A stretch of 64,000 nt of DNA from a virus: positions 32,001 through 96,000 of IMG/VR virus record IMGVR_UViG_3300042465_009257. One strand, 5' to 3'. Of this stretch, positions 3,723-52,079 are shown in pieces (the first letter of the stretch is position 1; the number at the start of each line of letters is the position of its first letter). The notes under the pieces are model-generated. The model did not search any database, was not told the origin of the DNA, and saw only the letters and a list, made by a program, of their open reading frames with translations. A program made the position numbers and the translations under genes.

Positions 3723-5042
3723 TTAGGCGCATTCTTCCAATTCTGCCGTATCGTCCGATTCAATGTCAACCTCACCTTTATCCAAAAGCTCTGTCTCTTT
3801 AACAAGAAAGCGAAATGCCTTGAGCTTGAACGCCTTAAGCGCCTTCGTCTCATTCCTCAAGCAAATACCTTCAGCAGGAACTCCAGTATTGCATTCCTTG
3901 CAAATTTGCTCCAAATTGAAAGAAGTCTTTAAATTTTTAAGAAACTCCTCATGCCAATGAGCCTCAAGATGGAGATTAGGAAATAAATCCTTGGCCAAAC
4001 CTTGGTAAAAAATAGGAACATGCTGCAACTTATTATCCCGACAAAACTGAATAACCTCCCGCATTGAATATTCTGTCACCTCATTTGTTGGAGACGTATG
4101 AGTTACCCGATAAACTACCACCTTGAATTCTCCTAGCTTACATCCATAAGTCCATTTGCCTTGGATTTTGCTTCCAGACGGCGTATAGCCTACGATTTCT
4201 GCGTAGATTTGAATGCCATCTGTCAGAGCATGTTCAATCGTTTTAAATCCATCGCGCCATACGTCCTCCTTGTAATAATGATCGCTTTGCGGGAGGAGAG
4301 ATTTAATCACCGTGCGGCTGGCATATACGTTTTCGTATTGGGCTAATGGAACATTTAATCCGCAGAAATTCTTAATTTTTTCCCACAAAGATAAATTCCG
4401 CTTCAATAAAACACGGCCACAATTCAGGCTCGTTCCATGAAATTTATCAGAGATTACAATATAATCATCAGGATCAATCAAATGAATATTATCGGCCAGC
4501 TTAGAGGTATCATAATGCAAATGATATTGCCCTTCAATGAGGCGGCTGGGAAGTTTCCTCACTTTTTTACCTGCAACTCCATTGACCTGCTTTTCGCGAA
4601 TAAGATATTTCCGGCATAATTCCTCGCCATCAATGGTATCAAAAGCCTGATTATCAGCTATATTATCCCATTCGGCAATTTTAATTCCGCGCCAAACTTC
4701 GAAATACTCTAAGGGGCAAAACAAGCCCTCGCTTGGGACTTTCATGAATTTAATACATCGAACCCGGCGCTTGTCTCCAAAATATCCCTTTTTAGTCTGA
4801 TCCGCATTCAACATTTGATCAGAATAGAGATTGTTTTTGGCCGCGAAACTACCAGACAGTTGACTTTCCACTGGGAAAAATACACCCCTATCGCCAACTT
4901 TAGACTCTTTTGAAACAATAACAAGATTTCCATTGATAACCGCGTGCTGAATACTATTCGCACCTGGAATTTCATGCAACGTTTTTAAAGTAACGTAATG
5001 AGCCGCGTAATTTTCGCTATTTTCAATAGTGAGTTTATTCAT
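3723..5042 (-). CDS. RNA ligase (Rnl2/DRB0094-like) with N-terminal OB domain
   Basis: motif I KFHGTS, EIVG, EGICLR, KLK nucleotidyltransferase motifs. Confidence 0.85.
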   Translation of the reverse strand: MNKLTIENSENYAAHYVTLKTLHEIPGANSIQHAVINGNLVIVSKESKVGDRGVFFPVESQLSGSFAAKNNLYSDQMLNADQTKKGYFGDKRRVRCIKFMKVPSEGLFCPLEYFEVWRGIKIAEWDNIADNQAFDTIDGEELCRKYLIREKQVNGVAGKKVRKLPSRLIEGQYHLHYDTSKLADNIHLIDPDDYIVISDKFHGTSLNCGRVLLKRNLSLWEKIKNFCGLNVPLAQYENVYASRTVIKSLLPQSDHYYKEDVWRDGFKTIEHALTDGIQIYAEIVGYTPSGSKIQGKWTYGCKLGEFKVVVYRVTHTSPTNEVTEYSMREVIQFCRDNKLQHVPIFYQGLAKDLFPNLHLEAHWHEEFLKNLKTSFNLEQICKECNTGVPAEGICLRNETKALKAFKLKAFRFLVKETELLDKGEVDIESDDTAELEECA

Positions 5043-11854: not shown

Positions 11855-11936
11855 CGTAACGGACGGGAATTGAACCCGCTACCTCTCGCGTGCGATCCTC
11901 GCTACGCCAGCGCTCTCACCGCCGAGCTACCGTTAC
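11855..11936 (-). ncRNA. tRNA-like RNA with elongated, non-canonical anticodon arm
   Basis: 7-bp acceptor GTAACGG/CCGTTAC, D-stem GCTC/GAGC, T-arm GCGGG-TTCAATT-CCCGT, 26-nt anticodon arm; no encoded CCA. Confidence 0.75.
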
Positions 11937-29773: not shown

Positions 29774-32700
29774 TTAATTAAGGGCCGCGCCCTCAATATT
29801 TTGGGATTTGCCAAGAGCTTTTTGTTCTTTCTCTTGATGTTTATTCAAATCGGAAACGCGGCTGTAGATTTTAAGAGCTTGAATTTCAGCCAGATCAATA
29901 AAAATTAAAGGATCTTCGCCGCCGCCCTTCTGACCACGGATATAAATCAACTGTCCTTCTTCCGGTTCGCCAAATTTCGCCAAATAACTCAGCCATTTAT
30001 CTCCTGTAAATAATGACTCAATATTACCTGTCTCATCTGCCAAAGTGATTTTTGCATATTTATTCCCAGATTTTTTAGCTGTGCCGGTTTTTATCTCTTT
30101 AACCTCCGCAACGACTTGGAGTCGCTCTTTTTCATAAAGTTCAGTTTTAATCTGTCCGATTTTAGAAAGGTCAGGATATTCGTCAAAGAGTTCTGAAAGG
30201 GTGATACTAGGGCAGTATCCGAGGAGCTTCTTTTCGAAGAGCCATTGGGAGACCATGGGATTTTTGGAGTTCTCTTTGTAGATTTCGAAGTAGCTGGCGC
30301 AATTTTTACGGAGAGTAGCCAAGCGTGATTCTTTGCCGATGGGTTTACCGTTCAGGCCAATCCATTCCAAATAACTTTTCATCATAGAAATTAGATCAAA
30401 ATTATGAGACTTCCCATTTTCAAGACAATAGTTCTGTTCTTTTGTTGTAAGCTCTTTCCAGATTTTAGAACAGAGAACGGTTTTTTGTCTATCGAATGGA
30501 GCAAGATCCTCCAAAACCCCACATTCAATTAAAGCTGAAATAACAGTGGAGTTAACCTTTGATTGCTGTGCCGCTTGGAATACTTCAAATAAATTTGCAG
30601 TATCTTTTTGAATAAAGCTTTGAATATTGGCAATAGATTTTTCTGAAATCCCTTTAATAGCTTCTAATCCAAAACGGATATTCGGTCCCTCTAGTTTGAA
30701 ATCTCTTTCAGATTTAGTCAGTGATGGGGGTAGAAGTTTCAAATTAAAAGATGGCATCTCTTGGACCAAGATGGACACTTCTTCCGCTTGGTCTTGCTTA
30801 TCTTTTGATAAACGTAAAGCTTCCAAAAAGAAATGACTGGGATGATTAAACTTTAAGTATACACTTAAAGCACATAACTTGCTATAACAAAAACTGTGAG
30901 AAAAATTGAAAAGATAATCCGCTGACATCAACGCTAGACTCCATAATTTCTTTCCAGCCTCAATATCAATATTATTCTCTGCACATTTGTCATAAATTTT
31001 TTGCTCCCACTGTGCAATCTCATCAACCTTCTTTTTCCCTACGATGCGCCGAATATCATCAGCTTCGCTTAAACTAAAACCAATTTTTACAAAAAGAGCC
31101 ATGAGAGATTCTTGATAAATCATAACTCCTCCAGTCTTATTCAAAATTTCATCAAACAAAGGATGAACACTTGGCTTATCTCCAACTCCATTAACATAAT
31201 CTGCATACTGATCCAAAAAGACAAAACTTCCAGGGCGGCAAATAGCCAATACCGCCGATAGATCGTTCATCGATTTTGGTTTAATTTTATTTAATCCTCT
31301 CTTTGCGCTATCGCCAGAAATCTGGAATAGATTAGATGCACTTTCTAAATTTTGGAGATGACAATAGATATCGTCCCAACTTTCATAATTAATCTTAGAA
31401 ATATCAATCCCTAATGTCTTTACGATATTATCAAAAAGAGTAACTGATTGTAATCCTAAAAGATCAAGTTTGATTGTTGAAATTTCTGCGACATGAGCAT
31501 CTGCCGAAGTTACAATTTCTCCATCATTTCCATACTGCAAAGGCATGAAATCATTAAGAGGGTAATAAGAAATAATATAAGCTGAGGCGTGACTCCCGAA
31601 ATTTTTAATACAATTCTGTAGCTTCTTCACGCACCCGAATATCTCTGGATTATTATCTGCAAATTGTTTTATCTTCTCAGATTCTTCATACGCGGCTTCA
31701 GGTCTAGCGACTTTACCGAATTTAACAGGAATTTCATCTGAATAAACTTTAACCTGCTCTTCTGATAATCCACCGATAACTTTCCCAGCGTCTTTTAATA
31801 AAGCCTTTGTAGTTTGTGTGTTATAGGTCGAAAGTTTTGCGAATTTACCTGGATATTTCCCAGTCAAATATTCAATTACTTTATCTCTAGCTTCGGCCCC
31901 GTAATCGCAATCAATATCGCATAAAGACCCTGCTAAAAAAGTAACTCCATCAATAATTGAAGTTTTTGCGCGGGAAAGAGAAATAAATCTCTCGAAATAT
32001 AATCCTTTATCAACTGGGTCTACATCTACGATTCCCACAAGATAATTGATTAAACTCCCTGCACTAGAGCCTCGTCCGAAGCCATGAGCCAATTTATTTT
32101 TACGAGCAAATCTCATCGTCATCCATACGAGTAGAATATAAGAATCAAAACTTGTTTTATCAAGCATATCTAGCTCATACTCAAATCGTTGGCGATATTC
32201 CTCTTGTCTATCTTTACTTATGTCGCCATTATTTACTTTTTCTTTATATCCATGTCTGGATAAAATACGAAGAGTTTCAATATTCGTGGCACCCTCTGGA
32301 ATATTAAATTCCAATCGATCTTCCTCATCTAACTTAAACTCAGGCAATCTTACTCCTGGTAGAAACAAATCCAAAGGAGTCTCAAACTGCTTTTCAAAAT
32401 CAGACTCTCCATCGCCCAAGATATCCTTATTTTCATTCCAACTCTCTAAGCAAAACTCTGCTGAAGAGAAAAACTCCATATTTGGCTCTTCGATTGTATT
32501 TCCACTACCAAAAGATTTTCTGTCCATTAGTTTCCGCGCTTGGAAATAAGTAAGATCTGCACGGTTCTTGTAATAACAGGTTTTAACCTCGACAGTCTTC
32601 AATCCAAACGCCTTTGCATAATCCAAAGTCTTCTCCCTGATAATCCTATCAAAGAACATATCGCAATCTTCAAGAAACATGAAGGGTTGAATCTTACCAA

Positions 32701-49817: not shown

Positions 49818-49969
49818 ATCACGCCTTTAATTGTATTTAGAGTCTACTTTTTTCCTAACTTCTTCCAACTTTTTAATCTCCTCAATTTCTGCTTGAATCT
49901 TTATTTTTTCCTTTTCAATATCAGTAATTATAGGAAAGATATATTTTGCCAATGATTTTAATTTTTTCT

Positions 49970-50212
49970 TCATCCTTCACCAGGCACCGAGACTTCCCAT
50001 CCTAGTCGGGAAATAATTTTATCCATTGACTCTTTAGTCCGAAAAGTATTAACTTGGCAAGTTTCATTACGACCTTCAAATGTCGAGGCGCTAATCTGTT
50101 TAATTTCTGAATCAGGAATTACCAACATAGAATCATCTATGAGGCGTAGCAGCATGGCGCGGATTTTTACAGCAGGCTTTTTTTTACTTAGGGCTTTATT
50201 TTTTACAATCAT
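49970..50212 (-). CDS. hypothetical protein (start moved to MIVKNK, outside the tRNA)
   Basis: the longer ORF-track start lies inside the tRNA. Confidence 0.55.
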   Translation of the reverse strand: MIVKNKALSKKKPAVKIRAMLLRLIDDSMLVIPDSEIKQISASTFEGRNETCQVNTFRTKESMDKIISRLGWEVSVPGEG

Positions 50213-50224
50213 AATATTAAATTT

Positions 50225-50314
50225 TGGTGGGAGATGAGGGAATTGCACCCATCGCCGCCTTCCACTTTGTTATAATGGCAACGGATTTACAGTCCGCCAA
50301 GTGGGGCATCGCCC
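50225..50314 (-). tRNA. atypical tRNA-Tyr(GUA) lacking a D-arm, with a long variable region
   Basis: GCGGA-CTGTAAA-TCCGT anticodon arm, G1-C72, A73, encoded CCA, T-loop TGCAATT. Confidence 0.8.
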
Positions 50315-50321
50315 GTATTCA

Positions 50322-50350
50322 AGTATACGGCGGGAATTTTGAAAAGTCAA
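50322..50350 (-). promoter_or_regulatory. TTGACT-N17-TATACT promoter, 7 nt upstream of tRNA G1
   Basis: direct match. Confidence 0.75.
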
Positions 50351-50375
50351 GAGAAATTATTATGCCAACATCAGT

Positions 50376-50422
50376 TTAAATGGTTCCTAAACCGTCATCT
50401 GTACGGAAAAGGAACCATTTAA
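50376..50422. other. 13-bp inverted repeat hairpin downstream of nrdA
   Basis: TTAAATGGTTCCT...AGGAACCATTTAA with an inner CCGT/ACGG stem. Confidence 0.6.
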
Positions 50423-50432
50423 GCTTTGGATT

Positions 50433-52079
50433 CTACGCTTCGCAAGACGAACAATTAAGAATCGATCTGGCCAATTGCTGACTAGGATTACTAGAGCGTT
50501 GGTAATAGACTCCTTTTAGTCCTTTTCGCCACGCTTCAATCAAAAGAAGGCTCATGTCCTTTACAGGAGTCTCAGGAGGAATCATGAAATTGATACTTTG
50601 TCCTTGGTCAATATCTTTCTGCCGCGCCGAAGCCTGATTAATAATTTCCATCTGGCTAATTTCACCAAAAGTTTTGAATACATCTTTTTCATCTTGAGTC
50701 AAAAAGGTGAGATGCTGAACTGATCCCCCATGATTCAAGATAGATTTCCAAACTTCTGTAGAGTTTTCCCCTTTTTCTTTTAAGAGTTTTTTAACATACG
50801 GATTTTTAAAGGTGAACTTCCCTTTAGCTAAATCCTTAATGAAATAATTGGAGTTTAGTGGCTCAATCGACGGAGATACTTGGCCAAGAATAAACGAACT
50901 TGATGTTGTCGGGGCAACGGCACGAGTTGTACTATTCCTAATCCCATACCCCTTTAGAAGCTCAGGCTCTCCGAATAAAACCGCTAATTCTTGTGTAGCT
51001 TTATTGCACTTATTTGCAATATTTTTCCAAACTTGGGAGTTCAAAAGCTTTGCTTCCATGGACTCAAAGCTAATCATTTTTGACTGTAACAGAGAATGCC
51101 ATCCTAAAACTCCTAATCCAAGCGCTCGTTGGTTCATCGCAAAGCGCCGTGGAGCTTCCATGAATGCCATGCCTTCTGTTTTATTGATGAACTCTGTCAT
51201 CACTGCATCTAAAAAGTAAATTAGCGTCTCTACAGCGTCAGTATCTTTCCATTCATCATAATGAAGTAGATTCATTGAAGAAAGGTTGCAAACAAAAGAC
51301 TCTTTATCCGAATTAGCTAAATAAATTTCATTACACAGATTGGAATGGTTAATCTTTAGTCCTTTGTCTTTATAAACTTGCGGAGAGTTTTTATTTACTG
51401 TGTCAGAAAAGAAAAGATAAGGATATCCCGAACTCGACCGTTTCTCCAAAATCTTTTTCCAAACAGTCATATTCTCTTTTTTCTTCTCCAAGAGATCATT
51501 CATCCACTGATCGGAAATACAAACTCCTAAAGACATTTCTTGGATTGGATGCCCAGTATCGCGAATACGCAAAAACTCTAAAATATCAGGATGATCTACT
51601 GGAAGGTATGCCGCGAAAGATCCTCTGCGAACATTTCCTTGACTTACAACATTCATTAGCTTGTCGAAAATTTCCATAAAATGGACAGAACCAGTTGATT
51701 CACCACCAGACGAAATTTTGCTACCTCTGCCGCGAAGATCACCGAAAAAAGCAGAAGTTCCACCTCCAGCTTTTGTCATCATTCCTACTTCTGCCGCTTT
51801 GCCAAGAATATCTTCCATGCTATCCCCAATGTAACTTCCGAAACAGGAGATAGGCAAGCCACGAGACTTAGAGAAATTAGACCAAATTGGAGAGCTTAAG
51901 CTATACCAGCCGCGAGATAGGTAATCTTCAAATTTTTCGGCAAATCCATCAATTCCAAGATTTTTTTCTGCCTCTTTCGCGATTTCCCAAATTCGATCTT
52001 CGGCAGATTGTCCTTCTTCAAGATACCCCCTGGATAAATATTTGCGTGATTCCTCATTAAGCCAATAATATTTACTCAT
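50433..52079 (-). CDS. nrdA: class Ia ribonucleotide reductase alpha subunit (no ATP cone)
   Basis: PISCF, SNLCNEI, VCNLSS, APTTSSS, YY, C-terminal CSSCEA. Confidence 0.95.
   Translation of the reverse strand: MSKYYWLNEESRKYLSRGYLEEGQSAEDRIWEIAKEAEKNLGIDGFAEKFEDYLSRGWYSLSSPIWSNFSKSRGLPISCFGSYIGDSMEDILGKAAEVGMMTKAGGGTSAFFGDLRGRGSKISSGGESTGSVHFMEIFDKLMNVVSQGNVRRGSFAAYLPVDHPDILEFLRIRDTGHPIQEMSLGVCISDQWMNDLLEKKKENMTVWKKILEKRSSSGYPYLFFSDTVNKNSPQVYKDKGLKINHSNLCNEIYLANSDKESFVCNLSSMNLLHYDEWKDTDAVETLIYFLDAVMTEFINKTEGMAFMEAPRRFAMNQRALGLGVLGWHSLLQSKMISFESMEAKLLNSQVWKNIANKCNKATQELAVLFGEPELLKGYGIRNSTTRAVAPTTSSSFILGQVSPSIEPLNSNYFIKDLAKGKFTFKNPYVKKLLKEKGENSTEVWKSILNHGGSVQHLTFLTQDEKDVFKTFGEISQMEIINQASARQKDIDQGQSINFMIPPETPVKDMSLLLIEAWRKGLKGVYYQRSSNPSQQLARSILNCSSCEA

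Follow-up and report, generated by a model that had tools for sequence, protein, structure and literature searches.

A tRNA-Tyr-derived gene without a D arm behind its own promoter in a freshwater phage

tRNAs without a D arm are considered peculiar to animal mitochondria, in which the synthetases and elongation factors have co-evolved with them, and phage tRNAs are already known to defeat the retron, PARIS and PrrC defence systems. Phage T4 also makes small stable RNAs (species 1 and 2) that are encoded among its tRNA genes, are tRNA-like and processed, and have no known decoding role; they lack a recognisable Tyr anticodon arm. Unlike these, the element described here does possess such an arm: it is a tRNA-Tyr-derived RNA gene of 90 nucleotides (nt) that has lost its D arm, located on the minus strand of a 64,000-nt window (the whole stretch of DNA analysed, positions 32,001 to 96,000 of IMG/VR virus record IMGVR_UViG_3300042465_009257, a freshwater phage record of 173,358 bases). 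In the papers searched, a tRNA without a D arm is not described for any phage or bacterium.

Among described molecules, the mitochondrial D-armless tRNA-Ser(GCU/AGY) resembles the element in that a short linker takes the place of the D arm and is able to pair with the variable region and to lengthen the stack on the anticodon stem. The cryo-electron microscopy structure of human mitochondrial tRNA-Ser(GCU) has its D-replacement linker paired with the variable loop and stacked on the anticodon stem (PMC9427863), and the same pairing, which a preliminary description of our locus had called a new topology, is thus one that has been described before. However, the linker of the mitochondrial tRNA is 4 nt long and its variable loop is vestigial; it forms no stable L-shape and works with a co-evolved synthetase and factors (PMC9427863), whereas the element has a 10-nt linker and a 27-nt variable region, comes from a bacterial virus and has a putative function. 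A possible functional parallel comes from phage T5, in which a strong promoter drives overexpression of tRNA-Tyr and lets the phage escape retron-Eco7 PtuAB (PMC11555353): in both cases a phage tRNA-Tyr gene lies behind an unusually strong promoter, and the T5 rationale fits a phage that has a Tyr-type gene and no general tRNA set. By this analogy, the evasion of tRNA-targeting defences raised in the preliminary description is a reasonable hypothesis, with the difference that T5 tRNA-Tyr is a canonical cloverleaf whose role was shown by experiment, while the element is non-canonical and any such role of it putative.

Two RNA families delimit the element further. With canonical class II tRNA-Tyr (RF00005) it shares the CUGUAAA loop, A73, G1-C72, a long variable arm and CCA, but it has neither the D arm nor the nucleotides of the D-loop/T-loop elbow, carries G55 for U55 and has a bulged T stem. 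The tymovirus tRNA-like structure (RF00233) resembles it in the T arm (GGGUGCAAYUCCC) and the ACCA end, and this match, on which the sole Rfam signal at the element rests, is below threshold (18.8 bits, E 1.3; gathering score 40), so that the element is not a member; moreover, the tymovirus acceptor arm is a pseudoknot at the 3' end of an RNA genome, unlike that of the element. The resemblance nonetheless suggests, by analogy, that the UGCAAYU variant of the T-loop can work in a tRNA mimic.

Structure and ancestry of the element

Positions within the element are numbered from 1 to 90, running from 50314 to 50225 of the window on the minus strand, and its parts are laid out as follows.

50225-50314, minus: tRNA-Tyr-derived RNA gene, 90 nt, made up of acceptor stem, linker, anticodon arm, variable region, T arm, A73 and CCA
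50314-50308 with 50235-50229 (positions 1-7 / 80-86), minus: acceptor stem, six Watson-Crick pairs plus C4.U69
50298-50307 (positions 8-17), minus: linker replacing the D arm, 10 nt, read from the sequence, with CCACUU at 50304-50299
50281-50297 (positions 18-34), minus: anticodon arm, 5-bp stem (G.U, C-G, G-C, G-C, A-U), loop CUGUAAA, with GUA at 50290-50288
50254-50280 (positions 35-61), minus: variable region, 27 nt, with AAGUGG at 50267-50262
50278-50274 with 50266-50262 (positions 37-41 / 49-53), minus: candidate variable-arm stem with a 7-nt loop, predicted
50259-50254, minus: GGCGGC, read from the sequence and pairable with positions 8-12
50236-50253 (positions 62-79), minus: T arm as placed by family-model alignment, loop UGCAAUU at 50247-50241
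50228 (position 87) and 50227-50225 (positions 88-90), minus: encoded 3' end, A73 followed by CCA

The D arm is lost: the 10 nt between the acceptor and anticodon stems form no hairpin, and position 8 is a G. The remainder of the preliminary description of the gene (a D-armless tRNA-Tyr derivative with a 10-nt linker and a 27-nt variable region that retains GUA, A73, G1-C72 and an encoded CCA) can be read directly in the sequence, and with the long variable region these nucleotides make up the bacterial Tyr identity set. The anticodon arm (GCGGA / CUGUAAA / UCCGU) is canonical in its 5-bp stem, 7-nt loop, U33 and purine at 37, and a 5-bp variable-arm stem is possible at 37-41/49-53. The T-loop keeps U54, C56 and A58, with G replacing U55, while the T stem attains five Watson-Crick pairs only if U64 is bulged, the family-model alignment placing an inserted U in its 5' strand.

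To place the element among phage tRNAs, relatives were fished from IMG/VR with a pattern that joined the Tyr anticodon loop to the UGCAAYU T-loop, both taken from the element, and identity between element and relatives in these two loops is therefore by construction. The pattern returned 81 loci, 76 of which are tRNA-Tyr-like genes (55 distinct sequences, 50 of them aligned). Among the 50 aligned relatives the D, anticodon and T stems covary, the 3-bp D stem included, and 10 of the 13 predicted pairs show double compensatory changes. A covariance model built from these 50 phage tRNA-Tyr genes (R1) had one strong match in the 64-kb window, which is the element (34.9 bits, E 9.6e-8), and over the shared arms the element is identical to family members at a mean of 36.7 of 52 positions, compared with a mean of 37.1 within the family. 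Its closest members are L127, L108, L138 and L088: the anticodon arm is identical at 17/17 positions to those of L127, L108 and L157; the GGGCG start and the C4.U69 mismatch are common to the element and L127; and the variable arm starts (first 6-7 nt) with UGCCAUU in the element and L088 and with UGCCAC in L127, the UGG(C) partner strand being common to all three. BLAST likewise matches the anticodon arm to annotated phage tRNA-Tyr genes. The tRNA-Tyr ancestry of the element is established, and its likely place is in a phage-borne tRNA-Tyr(GUA) lineage marked by the T-loop UGCAAYU.

The element shares with this lineage A73, the encoded CCA, the T-loop and the anticodon arm (up to 17/17), but differs from it in the two segments that flank the anticodon arm. 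The acceptor-anticodon segment measures 19-22 nt in 50/50 relatives and 10 nt in the element, whereas the anticodon-T segment measures 13-19 nt in relatives and 27-28 nt in the element, where the R1 alignment places a 13-nt insertion in the variable region; total length is little changed (90 nt against 84-92 nt in relatives). The linker and the additional bases that precede the T stem, both of them lineage-specific, can base-pair with one another. The element also differs in its surroundings, as most genes of the lineage lie in tRNA clusters whereas the element is solitary and has its own promoter, and tblastx of this phage against the contigs bearing the closest tRNA-Tyr relatives showed no relation.

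The lineage itself has several unusual properties. Its IMG/VR loci (L082-L161) have D-loops without GG that read AGUAG or similar, and the association of this D-loop with a G55 T-loop suggests an elbow contact that has co-varied. About half of these genes are called by ARAGORN, and with Rfam they score anywhere from sub-threshold values up to 51 bits. tRNA-Tyr genes of the same lineage are also present in metagenome-assembled genomes of Peribacteria, Saccharibacteria and gut Firmicutes (e.g., L198, L203, L204, L215, L220-L222, L225).

Promoter, transcription unit and strain variation

The element lies between the gene for the large subunit of ribonucleotide reductase (RNR) and a series of small open reading frames (ORFs), all on the same strand.

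50433-52079, minus: RNR large-subunit ORF, complete, with the Pfam barrel domain aligned to position 522/523
50378-50420, minus: long inverted repeat with 11-bp outer arms and an inner hairpin, directly after the RNR large-subunit stop codon
50322-50350, minus: sigma-70-type promoter, TTGACT-17-TATACT, matching the consensus at 10/12 positions
49970-50212, minus: first downstream ORF, 80 amino acids (aa), its ATG 13 nt past CCA and without a Shine-Dalgarno motif

The strong promoter that the preliminary description had placed 7 nt upstream was recovered: 7 nt separate the end of its -10 hexamer from G1. The dedicated promoter is established, and behind it the element would open its own transcription unit, after the hairpin of the RNR operon. 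The inverted repeat is probably the terminator of that upstream operon; no U-tract follows it, and a terminator scan that required a T-run made no call there. The terminator-like hairpins of this phage are without U-tracts. The same scan found no terminator between CCA and the next ATG, so the 80-aa ORF and the small ORFs beyond it are probably co-transcribed with the element. None of these adjacent small ORFs, the 80-aa ORF included, matched a Pfam or PHROG family.

Promoter spacing elsewhere in the genome bears on where this transcript would begin. Throughout the record, 20 of 55 TTGAC[AT]-N16-18-TAnnnT sites sit 5-10 nt before the ATG of an ORF of at least 40 aa, and several of the 20 adjoining ORFs are 300-660 aa long (e.g., at record positions 68909, 59613, 25096 and 5690, minus strand). 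The phage thus appears, from this spacing, to make many leaderless mRNAs that start (+1) about 6-9 nt past the -10 hexamer, and because such sites imply leaderless starts, +1 is expected at G1 of the element. Initiation itself would then probably generate the mature 5' end without the help of RNase P, an enzyme that normally reads the D-loop/T-loop elbow. Leaderless starts, together with hairpins that have no U-tracts, hint that the host can translate leaderless messages; WhiB, which would mark an actinobacterial host, was not found in the phage.

Across the searched collections the element exists as only two alleles that are one base apart, with CCACUU and AAGUGG unchanged in both. Identical copies occur in contigs of several independent samples (L166-L169, L183, L190-L194), and the variant allele occurs in a strain (L164/L165) that is about 9-10% diverged overall and has one substitution in the element, at window 50230 (position 85), which turns G2-C71 into G2.U71 and keeps the pairing. 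In L164, both promoter hexamers are unchanged and three spacer bases differ; the 80-aa ORF is kept at roughly 25-30% nucleotide divergence, while the RNR gene upstream is about 4% diverged. Five haplotypes of the 220-nt intergenic region have 9 variable sites, 1 in the element and 8 in the other 130 nt, a distribution that is compatible with constraint on the element but suggestive only.

Strain divergence along this region also reveals a mosaic boundary (window 49840-50220): it is about 1-4% through RNR, promoter and element, rises to about 25-30% a few bases past CCA, runs at this level through the 80-aa ORF and returns to about 3% in a 152-aa ORF. The latter has no relatives in IMG/VR, and in a set of 5.8 billion proteins only ones that are 97-99% identical.

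Beyond these strains, the element was not recovered. Two exact or degenerate patterns of it had 0 matches in IMG/VR, it is present in none of 80 related loci anchored on RNR, a pattern scan of Joint Genome Institute (JGI) metagenomes returned one identical copy and otherwise chance matches only, and a scan of 185,579 genomes found no D-armless relative. Contigs of the closest RNR relatives carry identical copies, the one variant strain, another tRNA, or nothing at the locus.

Function, decay or leader

We tentatively favour, as something close to an evenly balanced proposition, the reading that the RNA is produced in quantity and is still selected as a tRNA-Tyr-like molecule, be it decoder or decoy; its expression, fold and charging, and any role in counter-defence, are what we infer. 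Within this phage species, a 10-nt linker has replaced the D arm and the variable region has grown to 27 nt. Under this reading, the near-consensus promoter would set +1 at G1, making 5' trimming unnecessary, and the RNA would end in its encoded CCA. The RNA would work through its intact Tyr anticodon arm and its acceptor/T minihelix, and the lost core would be replaced by pairing of linker and variable region, either 11-16/48-53, or 8-12/56-61 beside a 5-bp variable arm. The likeliest use would be to supply or mimic tRNA-Tyr during infection, by replenishing the host pool or by serving as a decoy when that pool is attacked. In favour of retention, the damage is limited to the core, the promoter spacing is intact and odd tRNA-like genes recur in this phage group; the stems look maintained rather than eroded, as the anticodon arm, T-loop, A73 and CCA are intact and C4.U69 is also present in L127. 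Further points for this reading are the five Watson-Crick pairs that a bulge preserves in the T stem, promoter hexamers that stay unchanged beside a diverging spacer, a G1 located like the ATG of about 20 leaderless genes, the single pair-keeping change among five haplotypes, the linker/variable complementarity, tRNA-like folds close in energy to the free optimum, the odd tRNA-like genes here and in L163, the RNA-ligase-family gene described below and the T5 precedent. In its strongest form, the reading describes a working D-armless tRNA-Tyr with a core rebuilt by linker/variable pairing, which bypasses RNase P and is charged and used, or which resists or soaks up a host nuclease directed at the normal tRNA-Tyr core; we consider this form unlikely, and, across all readings, the same must be said of a true decoder. 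Dependence on a phage-encoded tyrosyl-tRNA synthetase or CCA-adding enzyme was rejected, as neither was found.

How the core might be rebuilt depends on which of several pairings forms. The preliminary description had noted that CCACTT in the linker and AAGTGG in the variable region are complementary, and the match of CCACUU (50304-50299) to AAGUGG (50267-50262) is indeed exact and modestly beyond chance: 3.1% of composition-preserving shuffles contain a helix of at least 6 Watson-Crick pairs, and 1.5% reach the same duplex energy. When the hairpins of the acceptor, anticodon and T arms are enforced, the optimum (fold a, -25.0 kcal/mol) contains this helix, 11-16/48-53, extended by 8-10/56-58 and G17.U35; an alternative (fold b, -23.9 kcal/mol) combines the variable arm 37-41/49-53, with its 7-nt loop, and 8-12/56-61, with C58 bulged. 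Including the unconstrained fold (c, below), the three competing pairings lie within 2 kcal/mol. Homology favours fold (b), because AAGUGG corresponds to the 3' strand of the variable arm in L088 and L127 and pairs equally with CCAUU at 37-41. Presumed geometry favours it as well: five pairs on the 5-bp anticodon stem would approximate the ten layers of a normal anticodon-D domain, whereas fold (a) stacked on that stem would give about 15 continuous pairs. The full model of the preliminary description, in which a fully functional decoding tRNA-Tyr has its core rebuilt specifically by 11-16/48-53, can point to the rarity of the complementarity among shuffles, to the constrained optimum and to the analogy with mitochondrial tRNA-Ser(GCU) (PMC9427863). 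Set against these are the homology and geometry just given and the existence of only two alleles, without covariation. We know, moreover, of no D-armless decoder that works with bacterial factors, and we regard the model as improbable; the specific CCACUU/AAGUGG pairing is possible but not favoured.

Several observations weigh against any selected tRNA-like function. The element has no equivalents of U8, A14 or G18G19, and it fails every general tRNA model: ARAGORN in default mode called no tRNA anywhere in the 173,358-base record, the window included, and RF00005 (gathering threshold 29 bits) had no match at the element even at E 10. The metazoan-mitochondrial modes of ARAGORN found none either, and at a relaxed threshold the program picked exactly the 90 bases with an implausible interior. 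Fold stability is ordinary (minimum free energy -25.8 kcal/mol, z = 0.18), and the free optimum (fold c) forms a 10-bp helix, 29-38/59-68, that wrecks the anticodon and T arms. With no more than two alleles, no helix has a covariation signal. The conservation excess of the element is not significant (Fisher P 0.086, binomial 0.064), and we rejected conservation as proof of selection, given that divergence in the adjoining RNR block is likewise only about 4% and that the element sits at the edge of a hypervariable block. Distribution is narrow, as phages with 80-83% identical RNR lack the element, and the promoter could merely serve the downstream ORFs. No bacterial translation factor is known to accept a tRNA without a D arm. 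A specialised EF-Tu is described from nematode mitochondria (PMC1636415).

Many of these observations would be expected of a decaying tRNA-Tyr pseudogene, whose D arm was deleted or replaced, whose variable region was swollen by insertions and which is kept as a relic in the 5' leader of an operon. The promoter would then be needed for the downstream ORFs, and the remaining tRNA features would be too young to have eroded. Such a relic is quite possible, if on balance doubtful: beside the loss of a D arm that 50/50 relatives retain space for (19-22 nt), the T-stem bulge and acceptor mismatch, the failure of RF00005, the ordinary thermodynamics, the confinement to one phage species and a conservation not significantly above that of the flanking RNR block all agree with it, and fragments and non-canonical copies of tRNA genes are common in prokaryotic genomes (PMC9897764). 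However, the changes spare the anticodon arm (17/17), T-loop, A73 and CCA; C4.U69 recurs in an apparently intact relative (L127) and the T stem can still form five Watson-Crick pairs; the two lineage-specific segments complement one another; the sole substitution between strains keeps pairing; and the promoter spacing would put +1 exactly at G1. Phage genomes, in addition, usually purge useless DNA. The element might instead act in cis as a tRNA-like leader, that is, as a processing or stability signal ("tRNA punctuation") at which host 3'-end nucleases cut after CCA, thereby freeing the downstream message with a very short leader that would suit a leaderless-translating host and leaving the released RNA without a job. 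The uninterrupted path from CCA to an ATG 13 nt downstream that has no Shine-Dalgarno motif, the wide use of leaderless starts by the phage and the same order of promoter, tRNA and ORFs in a related contig (L163, below) speak for this, and co-transcription of tRNA and mRNA is well known, for example in the tufB operon of E. coli. An acceptor/T minihelix would, however, suffice for such a signal, which leaves the perfect Tyr anticodon arm unexplained, and the phage has other operons that get by without an element of this kind; we judge a role of this kind a rather slim prospect.

That the locus is not an RNA gene at all, being instead an ORF of 51 aa on the plus strand (50224-50379) or a phage attachment site with a tRNA-derived core, is scarcely tenable. 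In two JGI contigs gene callers do annotate an opposite-strand ORF of 50 aa, and phage attachment sites often carry the 3' portions of tRNAs, but the 51-aa ORF was rejected because L164 has a 1-nt deletion at 50367 and three adjacent substitutions, and an attachment-site fragment because no tyrosine integrase was found in the 173-kb genome and the element has both acceptor strands. An intron or intervening sequence splitting the RNR gene was also rejected, as that gene is complete.

What the element would mean depends on which of these readings holds. If functional, it is a new structural variant of phage tRNA or a tRNA mimic; otherwise it is an ordinary relic. A working D-armless tRNA-Tyr would be the first D-armless tRNA outside organelles, in a phage that has only structurally aberrant tRNA-like genes; used with ordinary bacterial machinery, it would reveal to what extent the tRNA core can be dispensed with and offer a natural scaffold for the engineering of minimal or orthogonal tRNAs. 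As a mimic or decoy, it would extend the contest of phages and hosts over tRNAs by an RNA-based tactic, and as a pseudogene it would document the decay of a phage tRNA gene whose promoter is kept for downstream genes. Of wider interest to tRNA biology are the widespread tRNA-Tyr lineage whose T-loop carries G55, the two other aberrant tRNA-like genes of this phage group and the pervasive leaderless promoters.

Other tRNA-like genes and a possible RNA-repair enzyme of the phage group

The whole phage record contains no canonical tRNA. It does encode a second tRNA-like gene and a protein with a possible role in RNA repair.

11855-11936, minus: second aberrant tRNA-like gene, RF00005 score 43.3 bits, with canonical acceptor, D and T arms and no CCA
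3723-5042, minus: RNA-ligase-family protein, 439 aa, with PF09414 and a PHA02142 OB-fold domain

In the second tRNA-like gene, the anticodon arm is replaced by a 26-nt hairpin. ARAGORN misses it by default and, in intron mode, reports a tRNA-Ala(cgc) with a 9-nt insert. A homologue lies at a different locus in L164 (L164:5433-5514), where the hairpin is identical at 26/26 positions and the T-stem changes keep pairing; a pattern scan of IMG/VR for this hairpin gave 0 matches. The product of 3723-5042 is, from its domains, a possible RNA or tRNA repair enzyme, and a partner of the PNK3P kinase-phosphatase type was not found in the phage.

A further tRNA-like gene occupies the locus syntenic to that of the element in L163, a contig from Logan SRR32380188 whose RNR is 83% identical. 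Here a TTGACT-N16-TATAGT promoter is followed by a short leader hairpin and a 76-nt tRNA (L163:5886-5961) that has a normal T-loop and a D arm, together with an 8-nt anticodon loop, CGCCCAAU, for which ARAGORN gives the four-base anticodon CCCA. It scores under the Rfam gathering threshold and could be a frameshift-type or otherwise non-standard tRNA.

The RNR gene upstream of the element varies within the species as well. The large subunit of L164 (L164:1644-4274) is 876 aa long and contains an intein with a LAGLIDADG endonuclease domain, and outside the intein its protein is identical to that of the inteinless 548-aa allele in the window (50433-52079): the RNR intein is a presence/absence polymorphism within one phage species.

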